Notes: generated from the letters alone by a model not told the origin. A stretch of DNA of 64,000 bases from Candidatus Kerfeldbacteria bacterium (GCA_047946875.1 CP181398.1:1169329-1233328), one strand, 5' to 3'. Shown: positions 11,166 to 50,699, counted from the first letter of the stretch. A program made the numbers and translations.

Positions 11166-11300
11166 TTAGACCTGCCTACCGGCAGGCAGGGGGAATTACG
11201 CGTCGCCTATTGGCTCGCTTCTACCCGTCCGATTCCCATTTTATCCCATATCAAAAAAAGTTCCACCATATAAATATGATAAAACTTTTTCTGGGGTCGG
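11166..11300. repeat. GC-containing repeat copy X1 (paired with 11735-11892), ending in a degenerate tRNA-His 3' end
   Basis: Shares gcaggcagg..cgcgtcgcc..ctcgcttcta.ccgt.cgattcc.attttr.cccatatcaaaaaaa..tttttctggggt with X2. Confidence 0.6.
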
Positions 11301-11656: not shown

Positions 11657-11734
11657 TTTTTGAATGATTCAAGACCAAATTATAGATAGTTACCAAAAAT
11701 ACCTCTTAATATTAAAGGCGTTTTTAGAAAAGCC

Positions 11735-11892
11735 GGCAGGGAGAATTTCGCGTCGCCAAAGGCTCCTTGTCCTGGGTAGCGACCCCGCGGTGCGGGGTCG
11801 ACTCTTGCCTTCGTCTCGCTTCTATCCGTTCGATTCCTATTTTGCCCCATATCAAAAAAATTTCATCATCTACAAGGGATAATAAAATTTTT
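11735..11892. repeat. repeat copy X2 directly abutting the tRNA-His 3' end
   Basis: Homologous to 11166-11300. Carries an extra GC hairpin segment (gggtagcgaccccgcggtgcggggtcgac). Confidence 0.6.
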
Positions 11893-11968
11893 CTGGGGTG
11901 GCTAGAGGGAATCGAACCCTCATAGCTGGTTCCACAAACCAGTGCACTAACCGTTGTGCTATAGCCAC
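11893..11968 (-). tRNA. tRNA-His (GUG), with G-1 and 3' CCA encoded
   Basis: Cloverleaf by eye. Anticodon loop TTGTGGA. G-1 is present. Confidence 0.85.
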
Positions 11969-12085
11969 CACGTTGATTTTACATTCCAGGTTACGTATCT
12001 CCGCATTCGCGAATTTACTCCACCTTTCATGTAAATCTGCCTTTCCTCACACATCTGTGCTCATTTTATTGCGCTCCTGATGTGT
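11969..12085 (-). promoter_or_regulatory. divergent member of the conserved tRNA-upstream element family
   Basis: Resembles the tRNA leader repeats at 18922, 19362, 46160, 47269 and 48647. Confidence 0.35.
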
Positions 12086-15172: not shown

Positions 15173-16045
15173 TTAGTATATTGCCAGCATAAATACACCA
15201 TCGGCAGGATTTTCATCTTTATCATGTTCCCAAACTAAAACGGTATTTGGATCAGATGCATGAGGAGCAGCGCCAATTAATCTAATAGCAACAGCACCGC
15301 CTGTACCACTTGGAGTAGCGATGTAAGCTCTAGTTGGTGTACCTGAACCATTATTTACAGCAAAATTGAAAGTTACTTCATATCTACCATTGCCAGTATT
15401 TGTGGCAGCAGTAGCATTATATCCACTAGTTAACGTACCTCCTGAACTAACATAGGCCCATCCTTTTAATGCTCCTTCAGCAGATACGGCCTGGGTGATG
15501 TTACCAGTAGTAGTGACTGTGTCAATACTAAGATCGGCAGTTGAGGATATATCGCTTCCAGTGATGGTTCCATCGACAATTTTAGCTGAGGTAATTGCAT
15601 TATCAGCAATGTCAGCGGTGGCAATTGTAGCATCAGTAATATTGTCAGATGTTACTATCCCAGTACCAAGTAAACTTGCTACTGTTAATGATCCAGTAAC
15701 TTCCATATTGTCATTGACAATAAATGGCATTGAATCTGCAGTACCAGCTGTTGCTCCGCGAAAAACACGTCCATCTATACGGACGTTATCACCAAAAGTA
15801 ACGGGATTGTCTACTCCGGCGTTTGTTGTGGTATTGATTATAGATCCATTGAAGTAGGTTACTCCACCTACACCCTGTTCACCGATCATCGTTGATCTCA
15901 TTTTCATTGTCCCATCTACTTGAAATATGTCTCCTTCTGGTCCAAATTGTGAAGTGACATTGTGACTAGTTGCAGCATTGACTATCCCAGCTGTCAAAGC
16001 AATAGAAGCAACTACCACTACGAGGGTTAAAAGCTTTTTTTTCAT
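15173..16045 (-). CDS. secreted surface protein, family member B
   Basis: The N-terminal 150 aa are near-identical to the 16160 and 6251 genes. ITDATIATADIADNAITSAKIVDGTITGSDI repeats. Unique C-terminus. Confidence 0.7.
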   Translation of the reverse strand: MKKKLLTLVVVVASIALTAGIVNAATSHNVTSQFGPEGDIFQVDGTMKMRSTMIGEQGVGGVTYFNGSIINTTTNAGVDNPVTFGDNVRIDGRVFRGATAGTADSMPFIVNDNMEVTGSLTVASLLGTGIVTSDNITDATIATADIADNAITSAKIVDGTITGSDISSTADLSIDTVTTTGNITQAVSAEGALKGWAYVSSGGTLTSGYNATAATNTGNGRYEVTFNFAVNNGSGTPTRAYIATPSGTGGAVAIRLIGAAPHASDPNTVLVWEHDKDENPADGVFMLAIY

Positions 16046-16159: not shown

Positions 16160-17077
16160 TTACATTTCGTAAATTATAAAACTAAATGAAGTTTGGCCAG
16201 CTGACCCGGTAGATTCGTCTACAAAATCAACAGTAAAATGATCATTTACGCTATTTGTAGCCGGAATAAATCCAGAATTTATCGGTGTAACAACCGCTAC
16301 ATGAGTAAGATAAGAATAAGTTACCCCAGTAATAGTAATTTCATATTGATTACTACCACCGTCCCAGGAACAAGCTATGTTACTGGTACCACCTCTATCA
16401 GAGCCATCTGAATTACAATAACCATAGGCAATAGGCAGATTGGCACCGCCCGTACCATTGATCTTGTCAGGTGTTATAGCGTCATCAGCTACATCTGCTG
16501 TAGCAATAGTTCCGTCTGTAATTTTTGAACTAATTATTGAGTTACTGGCTAAATCTCCAGATACAATAGTTCCGTCTGTAATTTTAGCTGAGGTAATAGC
16601 ATCATCATCAATTTTTGCAGTTGTAATTACGCTATCAGCTATGTCTGCTGTAGCTATAGTAGCGTCAGTAATATTGTCAGATGTTACTATCCCGGTACCA
16701 AGTAAACTTGCTACTGTTAATGATCCAGTAACTTCCATATTGTCGTTGACGATAAAAGGTTGAGTGTCTCCTGTTCCGGCAGTTGCTCCGCGAAAAACAC
16801 GTCCGTCAATACGAACATTATCACCAAAAGTTACGGGATTGTCTACACCGGAGTTTGTAGTGGCATTGATTATAGATCCATTGAAGTAAGTTACTCCACC
16901 AACACCTTGTTCACCGATCATAACTGATCTCATGTTCATTGTTCCATCTACTTGAAATATGTCTCCTTCTGGTCCAAATTGTGAAGTGACATTGTGACTA
17001 GTTGCTGCGTTGACTATCCCAGCTGTCAAAGCAATAGAAGCAACTACCACTACGAGGGTTAAAAGCTTTTTTTTCAT
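16160..17077 (-). CDS. secreted surface protein, family member C
   Basis: The 5' ~390 nt are nearly identical at DNA level to the 15173 gene. More ITxAKIxDGTI repeats. Distinct Cys-containing C-terminal domain. Confidence 0.7.
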   Translation of the reverse strand: MKKKLLTLVVVVASIALTAGIVNAATSHNVTSQFGPEGDIFQVDGTMNMRSVMIGEQGVGGVTYFNGSIINATTNSGVDNPVTFGDNVRIDGRVFRGATAGTGDTQPFIVNDNMEVTGSLTVASLLGTGIVTSDNITDATIATADIADSVITTAKIDDDAITSAKITDGTIVSGDLASNSIISSKITDGTIATADVADDAITPDKINGTGGANLPIAYGYCNSDGSDRGGTSNIACSWDGGSNQYEITITGVTYSYLTHVAVVTPINSGFIPATNSVNDHFTVDFVDESTGSAGQTSFSFIIYEM

Positions 17078-18431: not shown

Positions 18432-18575
18432 TGGTGGGACGTAGAGGATTTGAACCTCTGACCGTTTGCTTCCCGCCTTTCGGACGGGACAAGTAAGAGG
18501 CAACTTTATCCCGCTAAGAATTGGCGGGATGCTCTACTTTACCCCGCCTATTAAAGGCGGGGCGAGCTGAGCTAA
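18432..18575 (-). pseudogene. 5'-truncated tRNA-Lys copy interrupted by three GC-rich hairpin insertions
   Basis: Matches tRNA-Lys positions 9-76 exactly except for three inserts. One sits in the D-loop (18537-18565), one after the D-stem (18505-18529) and one between anticodon-loop positions 37 and 38 (18472-18493). Confidence 0.7.
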
Positions 18576-18803
18576 TTTATTTTTATATTGATGATTTTTC
18601 TTTTTTAGCCACAATTCGTGCCTCCTTGCCTCTTTATAAGAATGGTGTTTTTTAAAATATACAAGTTTAAATAGTTTATATTTTGAACTGCTGTTGAGTT
18701 TTCCTTGGTTGTGTTCGTGAATACGTTTCCAAGGTTGTATAGAAATACCACAATAATATTTATTAAACTTATTACTATATATTAAGTACGTATAAACATT
18801 CAT
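18534..18803 (-). CDS. small GIY-YIG nuclease (YazA/YhbQ-like)
   Basis: Translation MNVYTYLIYSNKFNKYYCGISIQPWKRIHEHNQG has the GIY-YIG motifs. The C-terminal 14 codons read through the tRNA-Lys pseudo-copy. Confidence 0.65.
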   Translation of the reverse strand: MNVYTYLIYSNKFNKYYCGISIQPWKRIHEHNQGKLNSSSKYKLFKLVYFKKHHSYKEARRHELWLKKKNHQYKNKLAQLAPPLIGGVK

Positions 18804-18842: not shown

Positions 18843-18921
18843 TGGTGGGACGTAGAGGATTTGAACCTCTGACCGTTTGCTTAAGAGGCAACTGCTCTAC
18901 CAAGCTGAGCTAACGTCCCGC
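18843..18921 (-). tRNA. tRNA-Lys (CUU), CCA encoded
   Basis: Anticodon loop CTCTTAA. Clean cloverleaf. Confidence 0.85.
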
Positions 18922-19020
18922 GTCGATATAATATTTTTGGTTACGTTTTCAGCTTTCGCTGCTAATTCCACCGCTCATATCATTTCTCCTTTCCTCGCAG
19001 AACGGTATCGTTCAGCTCGG
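18922..19020 (-). promoter_or_regulatory. conserved tRNA-upstream element (copy L1)
   Basis: Near-identical to 19362-19470 and homologous to 46160, 47269 and 48647 (cgtcga.ata.t.tttt.ggtt.cgttt...atttctcct..c). Confidence 0.5.
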
Positions 19021-19038
19021 TATTATTTATTATAGGAA

Positions 19039-19204
19039 TGGTACCCTCGAGAGCCCCGCTTTGAGCGGGATCTTCGAGAATCTCCGCCCAAGGCGGATGC
19101 GCCTATGGCGCAGAACCTTAAGTTTAAAAGATTGTTTATCCACGGCTCCCGCCCGCAACGCTAAAGCGTAGCTTTGGCGGGCGTGGTAGAAGGCCGTTGT
19201 TCCC
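19039..19204 (-). pseudogene. 5'-truncated tRNA-Arg copy with multiple GC-rich hairpin insertions; ends CGAGGGTACCA
   Basis: Segments GGAACAACGGCCTTCTA / AGCCGTGGATA / CTCTCGAGGGTACCA match tRNA-Arg. Inserts include a 39-nt hairpin exactly at position 37/38. Confidence 0.6.
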
Positions 19205-19220
19205 CGTCTGCCATCGCCAA

Positions 19221-19292
19221 TACCCTCGAGAGGAATCGAACCTCTATCCACGGCTTAGAAGGCCGTTGTTCTATCCGTTGAACTACAAGGGC
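19221..19292 (-). tRNA. tRNA-Arg (UCU), no CCA encoded, G1-U72 wobble
   Basis: Anticodon loop CTTCTAA. Its first 12 nt are duplicated upstream at 19346-19357 around a GC-rich element. Confidence 0.7.
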
Positions 19293-19345
19293 AATGGCAA
19301 TGGCGGGCAGGTATCCGTTGTCAGGCAGAGCCTGATCCGGCTTTG
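19293..19345. repeat. GC-rich palindromic element between the tRNA-Arg 5' end and an upstream duplicate of that end; member of the REP-like family CCGGCAKAGCCGGATCAGGCTCTRCCTG
   Basis: caggcagagcctgatccggctttgccgg is flanked by direct repeats (a)actacaagggc. Confidence 0.6.
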
Positions 19346-19361
19346 CCGGAAACTACAAGGG

Positions 19362-19470
19362 CGCGTCTAAATAATATTTTTGGTTACGTTTTCAGCTTTC
19401 GCTGCTAACTCCACCATTCATATCATTTCTCCTTTCCCCGCAGAACGGTATCGTTCAGCTCAATGTTATT
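19362..19470 (-). promoter_or_regulatory. conserved tRNA-upstream element (copy L2)
   Basis: About 95 percent identical to L1. Confidence 0.5.
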
Positions 19471-21385: not shown

Positions 21386-21931
21386 ATGATAAATCGTAAC
21401 GATCAGAGAATTGGAGTATTTGTAGATGTTCAGAATCTATATTATTCTGCAAAGAATCTATATGGTCAAAAAGTAAATTTTGGAGAAGTTTTAAAAACCG
21501 TAGTTGGTAATAGAAAGCTAATACGAGCTTTTGCATATGTAGTAAAGGCTCAGAATGTTGATGAGCAGAAATTTTTTGAGGCTTTGGGTAGTCAGGGATT
21601 TGAAGTTAAGATGAAAGAGTTACAAATATTTTTTGGTGGTCATAAAAAAGGTGACTGGGATATTGGGATGGCGATGGACGCTATTCGCCTATCCCCTAAA
21701 CTTGATGCTGTGATTCTGGTAACGGGTGATGGAGATTTTATTCCCTTGGTAGAGTATCTTAGAAATCACGGTCAATATGTAGAAGCTGTGTCATTTGGCG
21801 AATCAACTTCAACACTATTAAAAGCAGAAGTGGATGAGTTTACTGATCTGAGTGCCAAGCGCAATAAATATTTAATGAAAAGTTCAATAAGAAGAAAGAA
21901 AATAATTAATAAGTCGAATCGGCCTGCTTAG
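21386..21931 (+). CDS. NYN/LabA-like (PIN-fold) domain protein
   Basis: IGVFVDVQNL..VILVTGDGDF motif. Confidence 0.7.
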   Translation: MINRNDQRIGVFVDVQNLYYSAKNLYGQKVNFGEVLKTVVGNRKLIRAFAYVVKAQNVDEQKFFEALGSQGFEVKMKELQIFFGGHKKGDWDIGMAMDAIRLSPKLDAVILVTGDGDFIPLVEYLRNHGQYVEAVSFGESTSTLLKAEVDEFTDLSAKRNKYLMKSSIRRKKIINKSNRPA

Positions 21932-29248: not shown

Positions 29249-29278
29249 TCCGGCAGAGCCGGATCAGGCTCTGCCTGA
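29249..29278. repeat. GC-rich palindromic REP-like element (family CCGGCAKAGCCGGATCAGGCTCTRCCTG)
   Basis: ggcagagcc-ggatca-ggctctgcc perfect 9-bp arms. Copies also at 34086-34118 (inverted) and 19318-19345. Confidence 0.65.
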
Positions 29279-34085: not shown

Positions 34086-34118
34086 TTCAGGTAGAGCCTG
34101 ATCCGGCTATGCCGGAAA
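34086..34118. repeat. REP-like GC-rich element (inverted copy of the 29249 family)
   Basis: caggtagagcctgatccggctatgccgg. Confidence 0.6.
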
Positions 34119-45989: not shown

Positions 45990-46021
45990 TGGAGCGGCAA
46001 ATTCCGCTGAGCGGGATGAGC
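45990..46021 (-). pseudogene. degenerate 3' fragment of tRNA-Gly(GCC) with a GC hairpin
   Basis: tggagcggcaaa is identical to the tRNA 3' end, then attccgctgagcggga hairpin. Confidence 0.5.
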
Positions 46022-46082
46022 TTTTAGTATTAAGTGAGATTAATTAATAATCTTAGAATAAAATTTATAAGTTAATTTGTAA

Positions 46083-46159
46083 TGGAGCGGCAAACCGGAC
46101 TCGAACCGGCGACCTTTTCCTTGGCAAGGAAACGCTCTAGCCAACTGAGCTACTGCCGC
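46083..46159 (-). tRNA. tRNA-Gly (GCC), CCA encoded
   Basis: Anticodon loop TTGCCAA. Confidence 0.85.
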
Positions 46160-46262
46160 GCGTCGAAATAGTTTTTCTGGCTCCGTTTCCAATCAAGATT
46201 GAAAACTGCACCATTTACACTATTTCTCCTTCTCCTCGTCCCGAACTGCGGGACTCGGTAAA
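46160..46262 (-). promoter_or_regulatory. conserved tRNA-upstream element (copy L3)
   Basis: gcgtcgaaatagtttttctggctccgtttccaatcaagattgaaaactgcacc...ctcgtcccgaactgcgggactcgg. About 90 percent identical to 47269-47372. Confidence 0.55.
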
Positions 46263-46272
46263 GATTAATTTA

Positions 46273-46348
<76 letters not shown>

Positions 46349-46474
46349 ACAGCCAGATTAATAATATCTTATGTGCTGCTACGTAAAAATATAATACCAG
46401 AAAAATCATAATTTATCAAGAAGAATAGGTAATAAATATATGATTAAAAGTAAGTATTTAAGTAGTTAATTAAA

Positions 46475-47268: not shown

Positions 47269-47372
47269 GCGCGTCGAAATAGTATTTCTGGTTCCGTTTC
47301 CAATTAAGATTGAAAACTGCACCCTATGCACTATTTCTCCTTTTCTCGTCCCGCACTGCGGGACTCGGTTGA
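47269..47372 (-). promoter_or_regulatory. conserved tRNA-upstream element (copy L4)
   Basis: See L3. Confidence 0.55.
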
Positions 47373-48293: not shown

Positions 48294-48321
48294 AGATATT
48301 GTTTCTAAACAGTGTTGGGAT

Positions 48322-48363
48322 GGCGAGACTCGAACTCGCGACCCCTCGCTCCCAAAGCGAGTG
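48322..48363 (-). pseudogene. partial duplicate of the tRNA-Pro 3' half
   Basis: 42 nt identical to 48397-48438 of tRNA-Pro. Confidence 0.7.
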
Positions 48364-48387
48364 ATAGTTAGTATTAATACATCTAAG

Positions 48388-48461
48388 TCGGGGTGGCGAG
48401 ACTCGAACTCGCGACCCCTCGCTCCCAAAGCGAGTGCGCTAGCCAACTGCGCTACACCCCG
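48388..48461 (-). tRNA. tRNA-Pro (UGG), no CCA encoded
   Basis: Anticodon loop TTTGGGA. Confidence 0.85.
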
Positions 48462-48519
48462 ACACAGATGTATTACTAACTATTTTATTTTCAAGGTAAT
48501 GATTTTATTGGAAACTGCG

Positions 48520-48549
48520 CCTGCCTGCCGGTAGGCAGGCTACACCCCG
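48520..48549. repeat. GC-rich palindrome (cctgcctgccggtaggcagg) followed by a 10-nt duplicate of the tRNA-Pro 5' end
   Basis: Same palindrome family as 11171-11190 and 6087-6103. Confidence 0.55.
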
Positions 48550-48574
48550 TAACTATATAGAAAGTTTGGTAAAA

Positions 48575-48646
48575 TGCCGCGGGGCGGAATCGAACCACCG
48601 ACGCAAGGATTTTCAGTCCTTCGCTCTACCCCTGAGCTACCGCGGC
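48575..48646 (-). tRNA. tRNA-Phe (GAA), no CCA encoded
   Basis: Anticodon loop CTGAAAA. Confidence 0.85.
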
Positions 48647-48745
48647 GCGTCGAAATGATACTTCAGGTTCCGTTTCCAACTGAAGTTGAAAACTGCACTC
48701 TTTATATCATTTCTCCTCTCCTCAATGAAGCTACGCTTCCTTTCG
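48647..48745 (-). promoter_or_regulatory. conserved tRNA-upstream element (copy L5)
   Basis: gcgtcgaaatgatacttcaggttccgtttccaactgaagttgaaaactgcac...atttctcct. Confidence 0.5.
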
Positions 48746-48758
48746 GTATAATTCTTAA

Positions 48759-48835
48759 TGGTGGGCGATCCAGGAGTTGAACCTGGGACCTCGTCATTAT
48801 CAGTGACGCGCTCTAACCAACTGAGCTAATCGCCC
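48759..48835 (-). tRNA. tRNA-Ile (GAU), CCA encoded
   Basis: Anticodon loop CTGATAA. Lies downstream of the 16S gene. Confidence 0.85.
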
Positions 48836-48899
48836 ATAAATTGTTAATTGTTATTTGTAAATGTTTTAAATATATCTGTATTCTAGGAGTTGATCAAAT

Positions 48900-48989
48900 G
48901 TCGCGCTCCCCGCCCGTACCGAACGGGTACGTTCGGGCGGGTAACTTCATCCCGCCTGTTCTAGGCGGGGCAAGCTGAGCTAATCGCCC
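48900..48989 (-). pseudogene. degenerate 5' copy of tRNA-Ile carrying two GC-rich hairpin insertions
   Basis: GGGCGATTAGCTCAGC [hairpin] ATGAAGTTA [hairpin] AGCGCGAC. The first insert is homologous to insert 1 of the tRNA-Lys pseudo-copy. Confidence 0.55.
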
Positions 48990-49100
48990 TTATTTAGAAT
49001 AAATAATAAATAAAAAAACTACAGTATATATTCAGTAATTCTAGCTATAATAATATCAATTATGCTAAAAAAATCAAGTTGACTGTAGTAATTACATTGA

Positions 49101-49133
49101 TTGACAACCAAAAAGTAATAAGAAAGAAATACC
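49101..49133 (-). other. 16S trailer half of the rRNA processing stem (complementary to 50763-50794)
   Basis: The two 32-nt segments are inverted complements that flank the 16S gene. Confidence 0.6.
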
Positions 49134-49203
49134 GATTCTTAGCTTGTATAAAAATACAAACTACCGACCATTTTTAAGAGTAGAACTCTTAAAATGTATC
49201 TCC

Positions 49204-50699
<1,496 letters not shown>

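Follow-up and report, generated by a model that had tools for sequence, protein, structure and literature searches.

A hairpin RNA module joined to the 5' ends of tRNA genes in Kerfeldbacteria-like Patescibacteria

In Escherichia coli, 3'ETS-leuZ and the internal spacers of metZWV reportedly sponge the small RNAs RyhB and RybB, a finding that is said to go back to Lalaouna et al. 2015. In the MALAT1/mascRNA system, reported by Wilusz et al. 2008, RNase P reportedly cuts at a downstream tRNA-like structure and thereby sets the 3' end of the upstream RNA. To our knowledge, no arrangement in which tRNAs serve as 3'-end processing signals for a class of small RNAs has been catalogued for bacteria, and we know of almost no RNA biology in organisms of the Candidate Phyla Radiation and of no small-RNA biology in the lineage considered here. 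Upstream elements of another kind are found in Nanoarchaeum equitans, where promoters at a fixed distance give leaderless tRNAs (PMC10100707). Here we describe a module of 85 to 105 nt that stands directly before tRNA genes in a Candidatus Kerfeldbacteria bacterium and its relatives. Our tentative reading, to which we give a rough probability of 0.45, is that the module is a leader or spacer RNA that is cotranscribed with its tRNA and that cleavage at the tRNA 5' end releases it in the form of a stable hairpin.

The window, by which we mean the whole 64-kb stretch of DNA that was analyzed, contains a full-length bacterial 16S rRNA gene at a base composition of about 33% G+C and encodes SMC, PNPase, an H+-pyrophosphatase and the CCA-adding enzyme; given the 16S gene, these housekeeping genes and the base composition, we conclude that it is chromosomal DNA. 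The 16S gene is followed by tRNA-Ile, tRNA-Phe and tRNA-Pro and then by protein genes (48300-50698), and because no tRNA-Ala or 23S gene comes after it, the rRNA operon is split. Elsewhere in the window, two minus-strand ORFs of 290 and 305 aa (15173-16045 and 16160-17077) match no family, have an identical 22-nt stretch in common and are probably tandem paralogues.

The tRNAs that ARAGORN called in the window number 11 and are all read from the minus strand, and about half of them (6 of 11: His, Lys, Arg, Gly-GCC, Gly-UCC and Phe) are preceded by a copy of the module, which we refer to as the rod (Table 1). The original prediction for this DNA had proposed a conserved element of about 100 nt upstream of at least six different tRNAs. 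This was upheld, as the six intervals align with one another and all are strong matches (66.6-89.4 bits, E 1e-13 to 1e-19) to R1, a covariance model of 81 positions and 24 pairs that was built from the rod family. The copies, which are on the minus strand, group near 12 kb, near 19 kb and at 46-49 kb, and R1 had no sense-strand match away from a tRNA in the window. Given that they are spread over three clusters and recur in other genomes, the copies are not merely local segmental duplicates, and, with five of the window's tRNAs lacking one, the element does not accompany every tRNA.

We found that the junction between module and tRNA is sharply defined. Each window copy ends in CGACGC at its 3' end, apart from the His copy, which ends in CAACGT. 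The predicted contact with the tRNA 5' end was upheld, and four of the six copies end exactly at tRNA +1; in the Gly-UCC copy 2 additional nt (GC) come before +1, and the last position of the His copy is next to the encoded G-1 or coincides with it. For the Arg copy, which is one of the four, the predicted placement beside a tRNA-Arg stood, although the gene is a different one: the copy abuts the 5' end (+1, at 19362) of an older, broken tRNA-Arg and not the intact gene at 19220-19293, which is the one called by ARAGORN. The 7-nt tail motif TC[GA]ACG[CT] occurs 36 times on the two strands of 140 kb of clade DNA, and 11 of these occurrences end 0-3 nt before a called tRNA start, where about 0.02 would be expected. 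The association of tail and tRNA is not chance. The tRNA genes concerned are resident, CCA-encoding genes (Arg being Arg-UCU here, and a relative adding Met and initiator Met) and not the invading cassettes described below.

Table 1. Copies of the rod and neighboring features in the window (coordinates counted from its first nucleotide)
Feature	Interval	Strand	Details
Rod, subtype A	46160..46262	-	Directly 5' of tRNA-Gly(GCC); 85.8 bits; -38.3 kcal/mol, z -5.69
Parts of the 46160..46262 rod	Core 46160-46240; GC hairpin P0 46238-46254	-	Cys-Gly spacer
Rod, subtype A	47269..47372	-	5' of tRNA-Gly(UCC); core 47271-47351; 89.4 bits; z -4.96
Rod, subtype A	48647..48745	-	tRNA-Ile/tRNA-Phe spacer; 88.2 bits
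Rod, subtype B	18920..19022	-	5' of tRNA-Lys; P3 = CAGC-GAAA-GCUG; 83.2 bits
Rod, subtype B	19363..19466	-	Adjoins 5' end (19362) of older broken tRNA-Arg; 89.0 bits
Rod, divergent His-type	11969..12085	-	tRNA-Leu(GAG)/tRNA-His spacer; 66.6 bits; z -5.01
tRNA-Gly(GCC)	46083..46159	-	ARAGORN; Rfam tRNA 67.1 bits; 5' end = 3' boundary of the rod
tRNA-Cys	46274..46348	-	ARAGORN; upstream partner of tRNA-Gly(GCC) in apparent transcription unit
Promoter-like site TTGATA-17-TATTAT with TG	46391..46419	-	Consensus scan only; about 36 nt upstream of tRNA-Cys
Older split tRNA-Arg, partner of the Arg rod	19042..19362	-	Collinear blastn-short fragments q2-13, q23-38, q39-49, q62-73

Read in the direction of the tRNA, the module runs from ACCGAG through an optional hairpin (P0), a purine-rich AAGGAG, an irregular stem-loop of about 65 nt (the rod itself) and the CGACGC tail to tRNA +1. 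P0 is a GC-rich hairpin of variable sequence that is closed by CCGAG/CGAGG, and it is missing in two contigs from relatives, L040 and L004, and in the Gly-UCC copy of a third, L020. The rod opens with P1 (GAAAUnnnn/nnnnAUUUC), followed by an A-rich internal loop, by P2 (GGU/ACC) and by a symmetric loop, G-N-A/G-N'-A (G-S-A/G-K-A), whose middle pair covaries between C-G, G-U and U-A. Beyond this loop lies P3, which is variable in sequence and distinguishes two subtypes, reading UUUUCAAUC... in subtype A and CAGC-GAAA-GCUG in subtype B. As read by eye from the alignment, the AAGGAG and CGACGC segments can, in principle, extend P1 by way of a tandem G.A motif (GGAG/CGAC), in which case the helix would end 2 nt before the tRNA.

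Single copies folded with z-scores of -4.2 to -5.7, and when a rod was folded jointly with its tRNA, both the rod and the cloverleaf were retained. In the alignment, 85% of pair cells hold standard pairs, compared to 36-46% after the partners are slid by 1-3 columns. Compensatory changes were seen as well: both sides have changed in 12 of the 24 pairs, and the covariation score is 0.364 versus 0.156 in shuffles, figures that come from a model-guided alignment of 15 closely related matches (14 distinct rows) and are inflated by the small number of sequences and their shared ancestry. Paired cells contain 27 G-U against 10 A-C combinations, and this excess favors an RNA of the same sense as the tRNA or, at the least, a single-stranded form of that strand.

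We compared the module to known families by searching Rfam 15. Over the whole window at gathering thresholds, the search returned tRNA and 16S alone, and in the interval 46060-46290 at E<=10 it returned tRNA and noise, the best non-tRNA match over the rod being RMST_8 with 12 bits against a gathering threshold of 80. We conclude that the module is a real, previously uncatalogued structured RNA that is linked to tRNAs and has a narrow phylogenetic range.

Several specific identities were considered, and most were rejected. The module is not a T-box leader, as it sits upstream of tRNA genes, the same loops precede Lys, Arg and Gly tRNAs, and Rfam reports no T-box; on inspection, the P3 loops have no correspondence to the anticodons of the kind expected of a T-box-like specifier. 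It lacks the marks of a miniature inverted-repeat element (MITE), in that its ends (ACCGAG.../...CGACGC) are not inverted repeats and no duplication flanks it; the boundaries are clean where a filled Arg site can be compared with an empty one. As to an IS200/IS605 derivative or a TnpB omega RNA, the 30 ORFs scanned in the window, which covers 64 kb of the 1.31-Mb genome, include no tnpA or tnpB, the hairpin on the 5' side is variable and sometimes missing, and no motif is common to the 5' flanks. A bridge RNA of IS110 (seekRNA) was dismissed because there is no DEDD recombinase gene nearby and the loops, by inspection, do not follow the identity of the adjoining tRNA. An integron attC site was likewise dismissed because every copy has GGAGAAAU/AUUUCGAC at its hairpin base and there are no GTT/AAC cores. 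The combination of AAGGAG with an AUG could suggest a small ORF, but by inspection the frames are of unequal length, the shortest having 2 codons and others running on into the tRNA, and neither Gly copy has the AUG, so the module is not coding. Finally, by inspection and not as the result of a tool, none of the K-turn, loop E, UAA/GAN and tetraloop-receptor motifs suits both subtypes.

Where the copies stand relative to transcription units bears directly on how they might be expressed. Rods lie between co-oriented tRNAs in the arrangements Cys-rod-Gly, Ile-rod-Phe and Leu-rod-His, and the promoter-like site upstream of tRNA-Cys (Table 1) would put the rod at 46160-46262 inside a Cys-rod-Gly transcript. 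Given these co-oriented flanks and this promoter, the module is most likely part of tRNA precursors. The module is on the tRNA strand and contiguous with +1 in all six cases in the window and in eight of the 10 distinct copies found in relatives. The original prediction had judged the element too long and too conserved for a bare promoter, a view that the z-scores, the compensatory changes and the position between co-oriented tRNAs support. Of the three options it then offered (a common leader, a sequence that moved with duplicated tRNA genes, or the end of an element targeting tRNA 5' flanks), the common leader is the best, on the basis of the fold, the compensatory changes, the co-oriented tRNAs and the tRNA-Cys promoter.

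According to this leader and spacer reading, the rod would be a lineage-specific family of structured noncoding RNAs in Kerfeldbacteria-like Patescibacteria that stands before a fixed subset of tRNAs as their 5' leader or intercistronic spacer. The module would be transcribed together with the tRNA, and the cut that makes the tRNA 5' end, by RNase P or an equivalent, would simultaneously create the 3' end of the module. This cut would free a compact hairpin RNA that we expect to be resistant to exonucleases, with the conserved GA-type internal loops as a possible protein-binding surface. The function would be a collective one, in which many copies give one RNA species that could act in trans, and, if so, single copies may decay while recombination keeps the live copies uniform. 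No RNase P gene or protein partner was identified in the 64 kb covered of the 1.31-Mb genome. We also noted a gene for an NYN-domain (PIN-like nuclease) protein just upstream of pnp in the window (21386-21931, plus strand). Such a gene lies between rpsO and pnp in L042 and L044, another is present in L022, and the protein is a candidate RNA-processing enzyme.

Alternatively, the conserved sequence could act at the DNA level as a stable-RNA promoter, in which the 3' strand of P1 is the -10 element and CGACGC a GC-rich discriminator, the first transcribed base is tRNA +1 or one beside it, giving leaderless tRNAs, and the palindrome is an operator or cruciform. Consistent with this possibility, AT-rich copies have a -10-like hexamer (TATTAT, TATCAT or TACTAT) at a fixed 8 nt before +1, with A2 and T6 among the best conserved columns, and every tRNA linked to the element begins with G. 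The Gly-UCC copy begins 2 nt past the stop codon of a DedA-like ORF, with no promoter called in the 450 nt upstream, and N. equitans provides a precedent for leaderless tRNAs from fixed-distance promoters (PMC10100707). However, the sigma-70 consensus scan passed no site inside any copy, subtype B is without a -35-like hexamer, and two copies from a relative, L009, have CACCAT at -10. In addition, the compensatory changes and the preponderance of G-U over A-C indicate folded RNA and not duplex DNA, copies occur inside apparent operons where no promoter is needed, and other tRNAs must have their 5' ends processed in any case, as tRNA-Cys would have a leader of about 36 nt and tRNA-Leu(UAA) abuts a stop codon. 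We regard the promoter explanation as quite improbable.

Relatives of the window were obtained as contigs by way of neighboring proteins, and protein identity sorts them into three tiers. Nearest is L020, whose DedA is 91% identical; L040, L041 and L046 belong to one assembly at 79-87%; and L042, L044, L045, L047 and L048 are more distant, at 59-64%, some of them sharing a metagenome with L009. R1 found 11 further copies in relatives, 10 of them distinct, and all adjoin a tRNA or tRNA fragment: eight of the 10 abut a tRNA start, and two, both in L009, abut a tRNA 3' fragment. The distribution is patchy and narrow. R1 detected no copies in some 224 kb of sequence from viral contigs and from relatives further away, and none in contigs whose DedA is 63-74% identical, stretches that contain few tRNAs. 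An exact-pattern scan of GTDB (one genome per species, the window's own genome being outside the set) gave 3 chance hits with no tRNA nearby, a scan of metagenomes gave 13 hits of which L004 and L009 alone are real, and a scan of viral contigs gave nine hits, all negative with R1 and with no tRNA nearby.

We examined orthologous sites in these relatives and found that they differ both in which subtype they carry and in whether they carry the rod at all. The Gly-UCC and Gly-GCC sites have subtype A in the window and subtype B in L020 and L040 (as does the Gly-UCC site of L004). The DNA flanking the Gly sites is 92-96% identical between the window and L020. Identity between orthologous Gly-UCC copies is just 65%, as their subtypes differ. 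Subtype B copies, on the other hand, are 85-93% identical over three genomes and five loci. Within the window, the rods before Lys and Arg have 93% identity, those before Gly and Phe belong to one subtype, and such near-identical copies before unrelated tRNAs argue against the suggestion that the element moved along with duplicated tRNA genes.

Presence and absence vary in a similar manner. At the Phe site the window carries a full rod; the corresponding spacer of L020 measures only 36 nt and consists of a hairpin and then ATACGC. A Lys copy is present in the window and in the distant L044 and absent from L041 and L042, where the tRNA-Lys locus itself is rearranged. At the Arg site, the window has a copy, L041 has ACGC alone, L044 has ...AATTATTCGACGT and L042 has nothing; the L044 tRNA-Arg leader was considered as a cryptic rod and rejected, as it has no rod fold (z -0.7). 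The His copy has a decaying orthologue in L046 (34.5 bits, 77% identity), and both tRNA-His copies of L048 are preceded only by GATTTCGACGT or TATTTCAACGT. A separate conserved stretch (…GCGGAAAGnnTnGAAAACnAnTTTTCnAAAAGGAGTTTTC…) lies upstream of tRNA-Arg at 10730-10838 in L042 and 10915-11077 in L044, with no match to the rod model and no significant fold.

At some sites, then, the 3' tail (TTTCGACGY) stands alone before an orthologous tRNA. All rod-less sites that retain the original tRNA 5' end and upstream flank (L020-Phe, L041-Arg, L044-Arg and both L048-His) keep a remnant of this tail, at least ACGC, and there was no clear case of insertion into a virgin site among the orthologous sites that we compared. 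These remnants suggest old presence followed by loss and not new insertion. The simplest history to be drawn from such comparisons would be that of an old leader at a defined set of tRNAs, which was homogenized by recombination among copies or strains, with the conserved tRNAs as anchors, and lost piecemeal; an old, homogenized leader family appears to fit better than fresh transposition. Two aspects of this history count against the leader reading. Individual copies are dispensable, which is also compatible with a selfish element, and the 3' tail outlives the rod, so that its conservation may in part be owed to another role, for instance as a -10-like box or a processing signal. The persistence of tail and hexamer before tRNA-His and tRNA-Arg in relatives where no rod remains, with the -10-like P1 3' strand and the GC-rich stretch outliving the rest of the rod, is the strongest observation on the side of the rivals and favors the promoter explanation.

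The two L009 copies are also not predicted by a plain leader model. In this contig (4187-4740), two rods are each followed by the last 17-19 nt of the upstream tRNA, starting from T-loop position 58; the breakpoint is identical in both, and in one case a second copy of the terminator follows. The arrangement looks like site-specific integration or a repeated precise deletion, and some site-specific process may be at work.

The tRNA genes of these genomes show other signs of turnover, which we describe as observations in their own right. Nested or overwritten tRNA genes occur in the window at 19042-19362 (Arg), 48321-48549 (Pro), 18432-18575 (Lys) and 48895-48989 (Ile), and among relatives in L004 and L040 (Gly-UCC, Phe and Pro), L041 (Arg) and L042 (Arg and Lys), while L020 has a clean ancestral state for Ile and Pro. 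In each case an older tRNA copy remains at the ancestral position, split by GC-rich hairpins, and an intact copy lies inside or beside it. The intact copies are often without an encoded CCA, and their 12-20-nt flanking inverted repeats would extend the acceptor stem; for example, the older tRNA-Arg (19042..19362) encloses the intact tRNA-Arg at 19220-19293, which has no encoded CCA and is flanked by inverted repeats. We know of no description of nested or overwritten tRNA genes of this kind in bacteria.

Against a background of 33% G+C, the window contains 18 short GC-rich hairpins, in families such as TCCGCC..GGCGGA and GGCAGAGCC..GGCTCTGCC. Thirteen of the 18 are in or near tRNA regions (for example at 19055-19112, 19336-19350, 18508-18562, 48519-48540 and 48919-48969), most of them within broken copies and up to five in one old tRNA-Arg; others are intergenic (29252-29275 and 34102-34116). 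This placement suggests palindromic elements with a preference for tRNA-like or GC-rich targets. A minus-strand ORF of 89 aa with a GIY-YIG nuclease domain (18534-18803, Pfam 8e-10) separates the intact tRNA-Lys from the decayed older one, into which its 3' end extends, and L041 has a GIY-YIG ORF of equal length just upstream of tRNA-Lys (2703-2972). It is possible that this ORF is a homing endonuclease acting on tRNA genes; phage T4 carries a GIY-YIG homing endonuclease, SegB, within a tRNA cluster (PMC2330249).

Two insertions or repeats directly behind tRNA genes may be added to this picture. An insertion of about 92 nt (45990-46082) comes directly after tRNA-Gly(GCC), is absent from L020 and ends in a repeat of the last 12 nt of that tRNA (TTTGCCGCTCCA, 45990-46001). 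The stretch that follows the 3' end of tRNA-His is present in two copies, 88% identical (11170-11300 and 11730-11893), which bracket about 430 nt with a small plus-strand reading frame seen by eye. On the plus strand these repeats read GGAGAATTTCGCGTCGCC, like a rod minus its interior, and then a tRNA-like T-arm sequence; they have no Rfam matches.

This raises the question of whether the rod itself could be a selfish repeat, non-autonomous and entering the tRNA 5' boundary by insertion or recombination, as part of a traffic directed at tRNA genes together with the GC hairpins, the inverted-repeat tRNA cassettes and the GIY-YIG ORF, its hairpin serving its own mobilization as RNA or single-stranded DNA. 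Presence, absence and subtype do differ at orthologous sites of close relatives, live copies are uniform while old ones decay, the L009 copies stand at the end of short segments, behind which the final 17-19 nt of the upstream tRNA recur with an identical breakpoint, and the neighborhood is rich in tRNA-directed insertions and includes a GIY-YIG ORF. However, no transposase, reverse transcriptase or TnpB is encoded among the 30 ORFs scanned across the window, including those beside the tRNA clusters, and the tyrosine recombinase adjacent to a copy is 42-65% identical across Patescibacteria, like a housekeeping XerC/D. Terminal inverted repeats, a target duplication and a constant target motif on the 5' side are all absent; no site is demonstrably virgin, as those without a rod but with the original tRNA 5' end keep ACGC or more; and 526 kb of searched DNA contains no copy away from a tRNA. 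The suggestion that the module is the terminal part of an element targeting tRNA 5' flanks was thus not borne out, given the tail remnants and the missing transposase, inverted repeats and target duplication, and we consider a selfish repeat unlikely. Two neighboring genes were set aside as parts of such an element: the recombinase beside the Arg copy is no element-borne integrase, being conserved across Patescibacteria in sequence (42-65%) and synteny, and the 407-aa ORF beside tRNA-Lys is no TnpB, having an N-terminal membrane-like segment, low complexity and no domain match.

A further possibility is that the rod is a guide-RNA scaffold in the manner of a TnpB omega RNA or Cas12 crRNA, with the adjoining tRNA sequence (the first bases of the tRNA or, in L009, the 3' fragment) as the guide, which would direct a nuclease or recombinase to tRNA genes and so drive their replacement. 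The layout of a scaffold followed by a variable flank, with an exact 3' boundary and differing flanks, would agree with this, as would the two copies with another flank (a tRNA 3' end) and the fact that tRNA genes are being overwritten. Yet no gene for an RNA-guided nuclease is present among the 30 ORFs scanned across the window, including those beside the tRNA clusters, Rfam gives no match of the omega-RNA type, the supposed guide would match the cell's own essential tRNA genes, and the cassettes flanked by inverted repeats have no rod, with nothing to link the two. We find this explanation extremely unlikely. We are also very doubtful that the rod is the RNA part, whether a homing signal or a guide scaffold, of a selfish system directed at tRNA genes that includes the cassettes, the GC hairpins and the GIY-YIG ORF; in such a system, it would be the exact 3' end of the rod that is joined to tRNA +1 or, as in L009, to T-loop position 58.

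Returning to the leader and spacer reading, if the rod is stably released, it would constitute an undescribed and abundant class of small RNA in the Candidate Phyla Radiation, one for which tRNAs serve as 3'-end signals. Should it prove to be a selfish or promoter element, it is still a marker of unusually strong turnover among tRNA genes, in which resident genes are broken by hairpins and replaced by nested copies, and such turnover is relevant to the question of how minimal genomes preserve essential RNA genes that exist as single copies. In both cases, our analysis provides a ready covariance model and exact predictions regarding RNA ends and a census of copies.

The rod can be compared with several known systems. 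Like REP/BIME, ERIC and Correia sequences, the Rickettsia palindromic elements and MITEs, rods are short, multi-copy hairpin repeats that are patchy among strains and homogenized within genomes, and they would likewise be co-transcribed with neighboring genes. Repeats of the REP/BIME type, however, are scattered in intergenic and coding DNA, whereas the rod was found only at tRNA 5' ends, with base-exact junctions, lacks terminal inverted repeats and target duplications, and has conserved non-Watson-Crick loops. The PATEs of IS200/IS605 and the TnpB omega RNA are similar in being rich in hairpins, in causing no target duplication, in their exact 3' boundary with a variable flank behind it and in forming an RNA of about 100 nt, but the rod has no TnpA or TnpB nearby, no paired end hairpins, no 5' target tetranucleotide and no Rfam match. 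The N. equitans promoters share with it a conserved upstream element, an invariant distance to +1 and purine-starting tRNAs; they are archaeal and have no RNA fold, in contrast to the rod, which shows covariation, has copies inside operons and coexists with other tRNAs that have leaders. MALAT1/mascRNA and the plant tRNA-snoRNA dicistronic genes resemble our proposal in using a tRNA as a 3'-end signal, although these are eukaryotic and involve a tRNA-like mimic or a snoRNA, while here the proposed processing signal would be a real tRNA, in a bacterium. The small RNAs from spacers and trailers of tRNA operons are alike in that a non-tRNA segment is freed by tRNA processing (as proposed here) and may act on its own. 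Those of E. coli come from a single locus, are short with little structure, and use Hfq to pair with small RNAs, whereas the rod is a multi-copy module of 85-105 nt with a conserved fold that precedes many different tRNAs.
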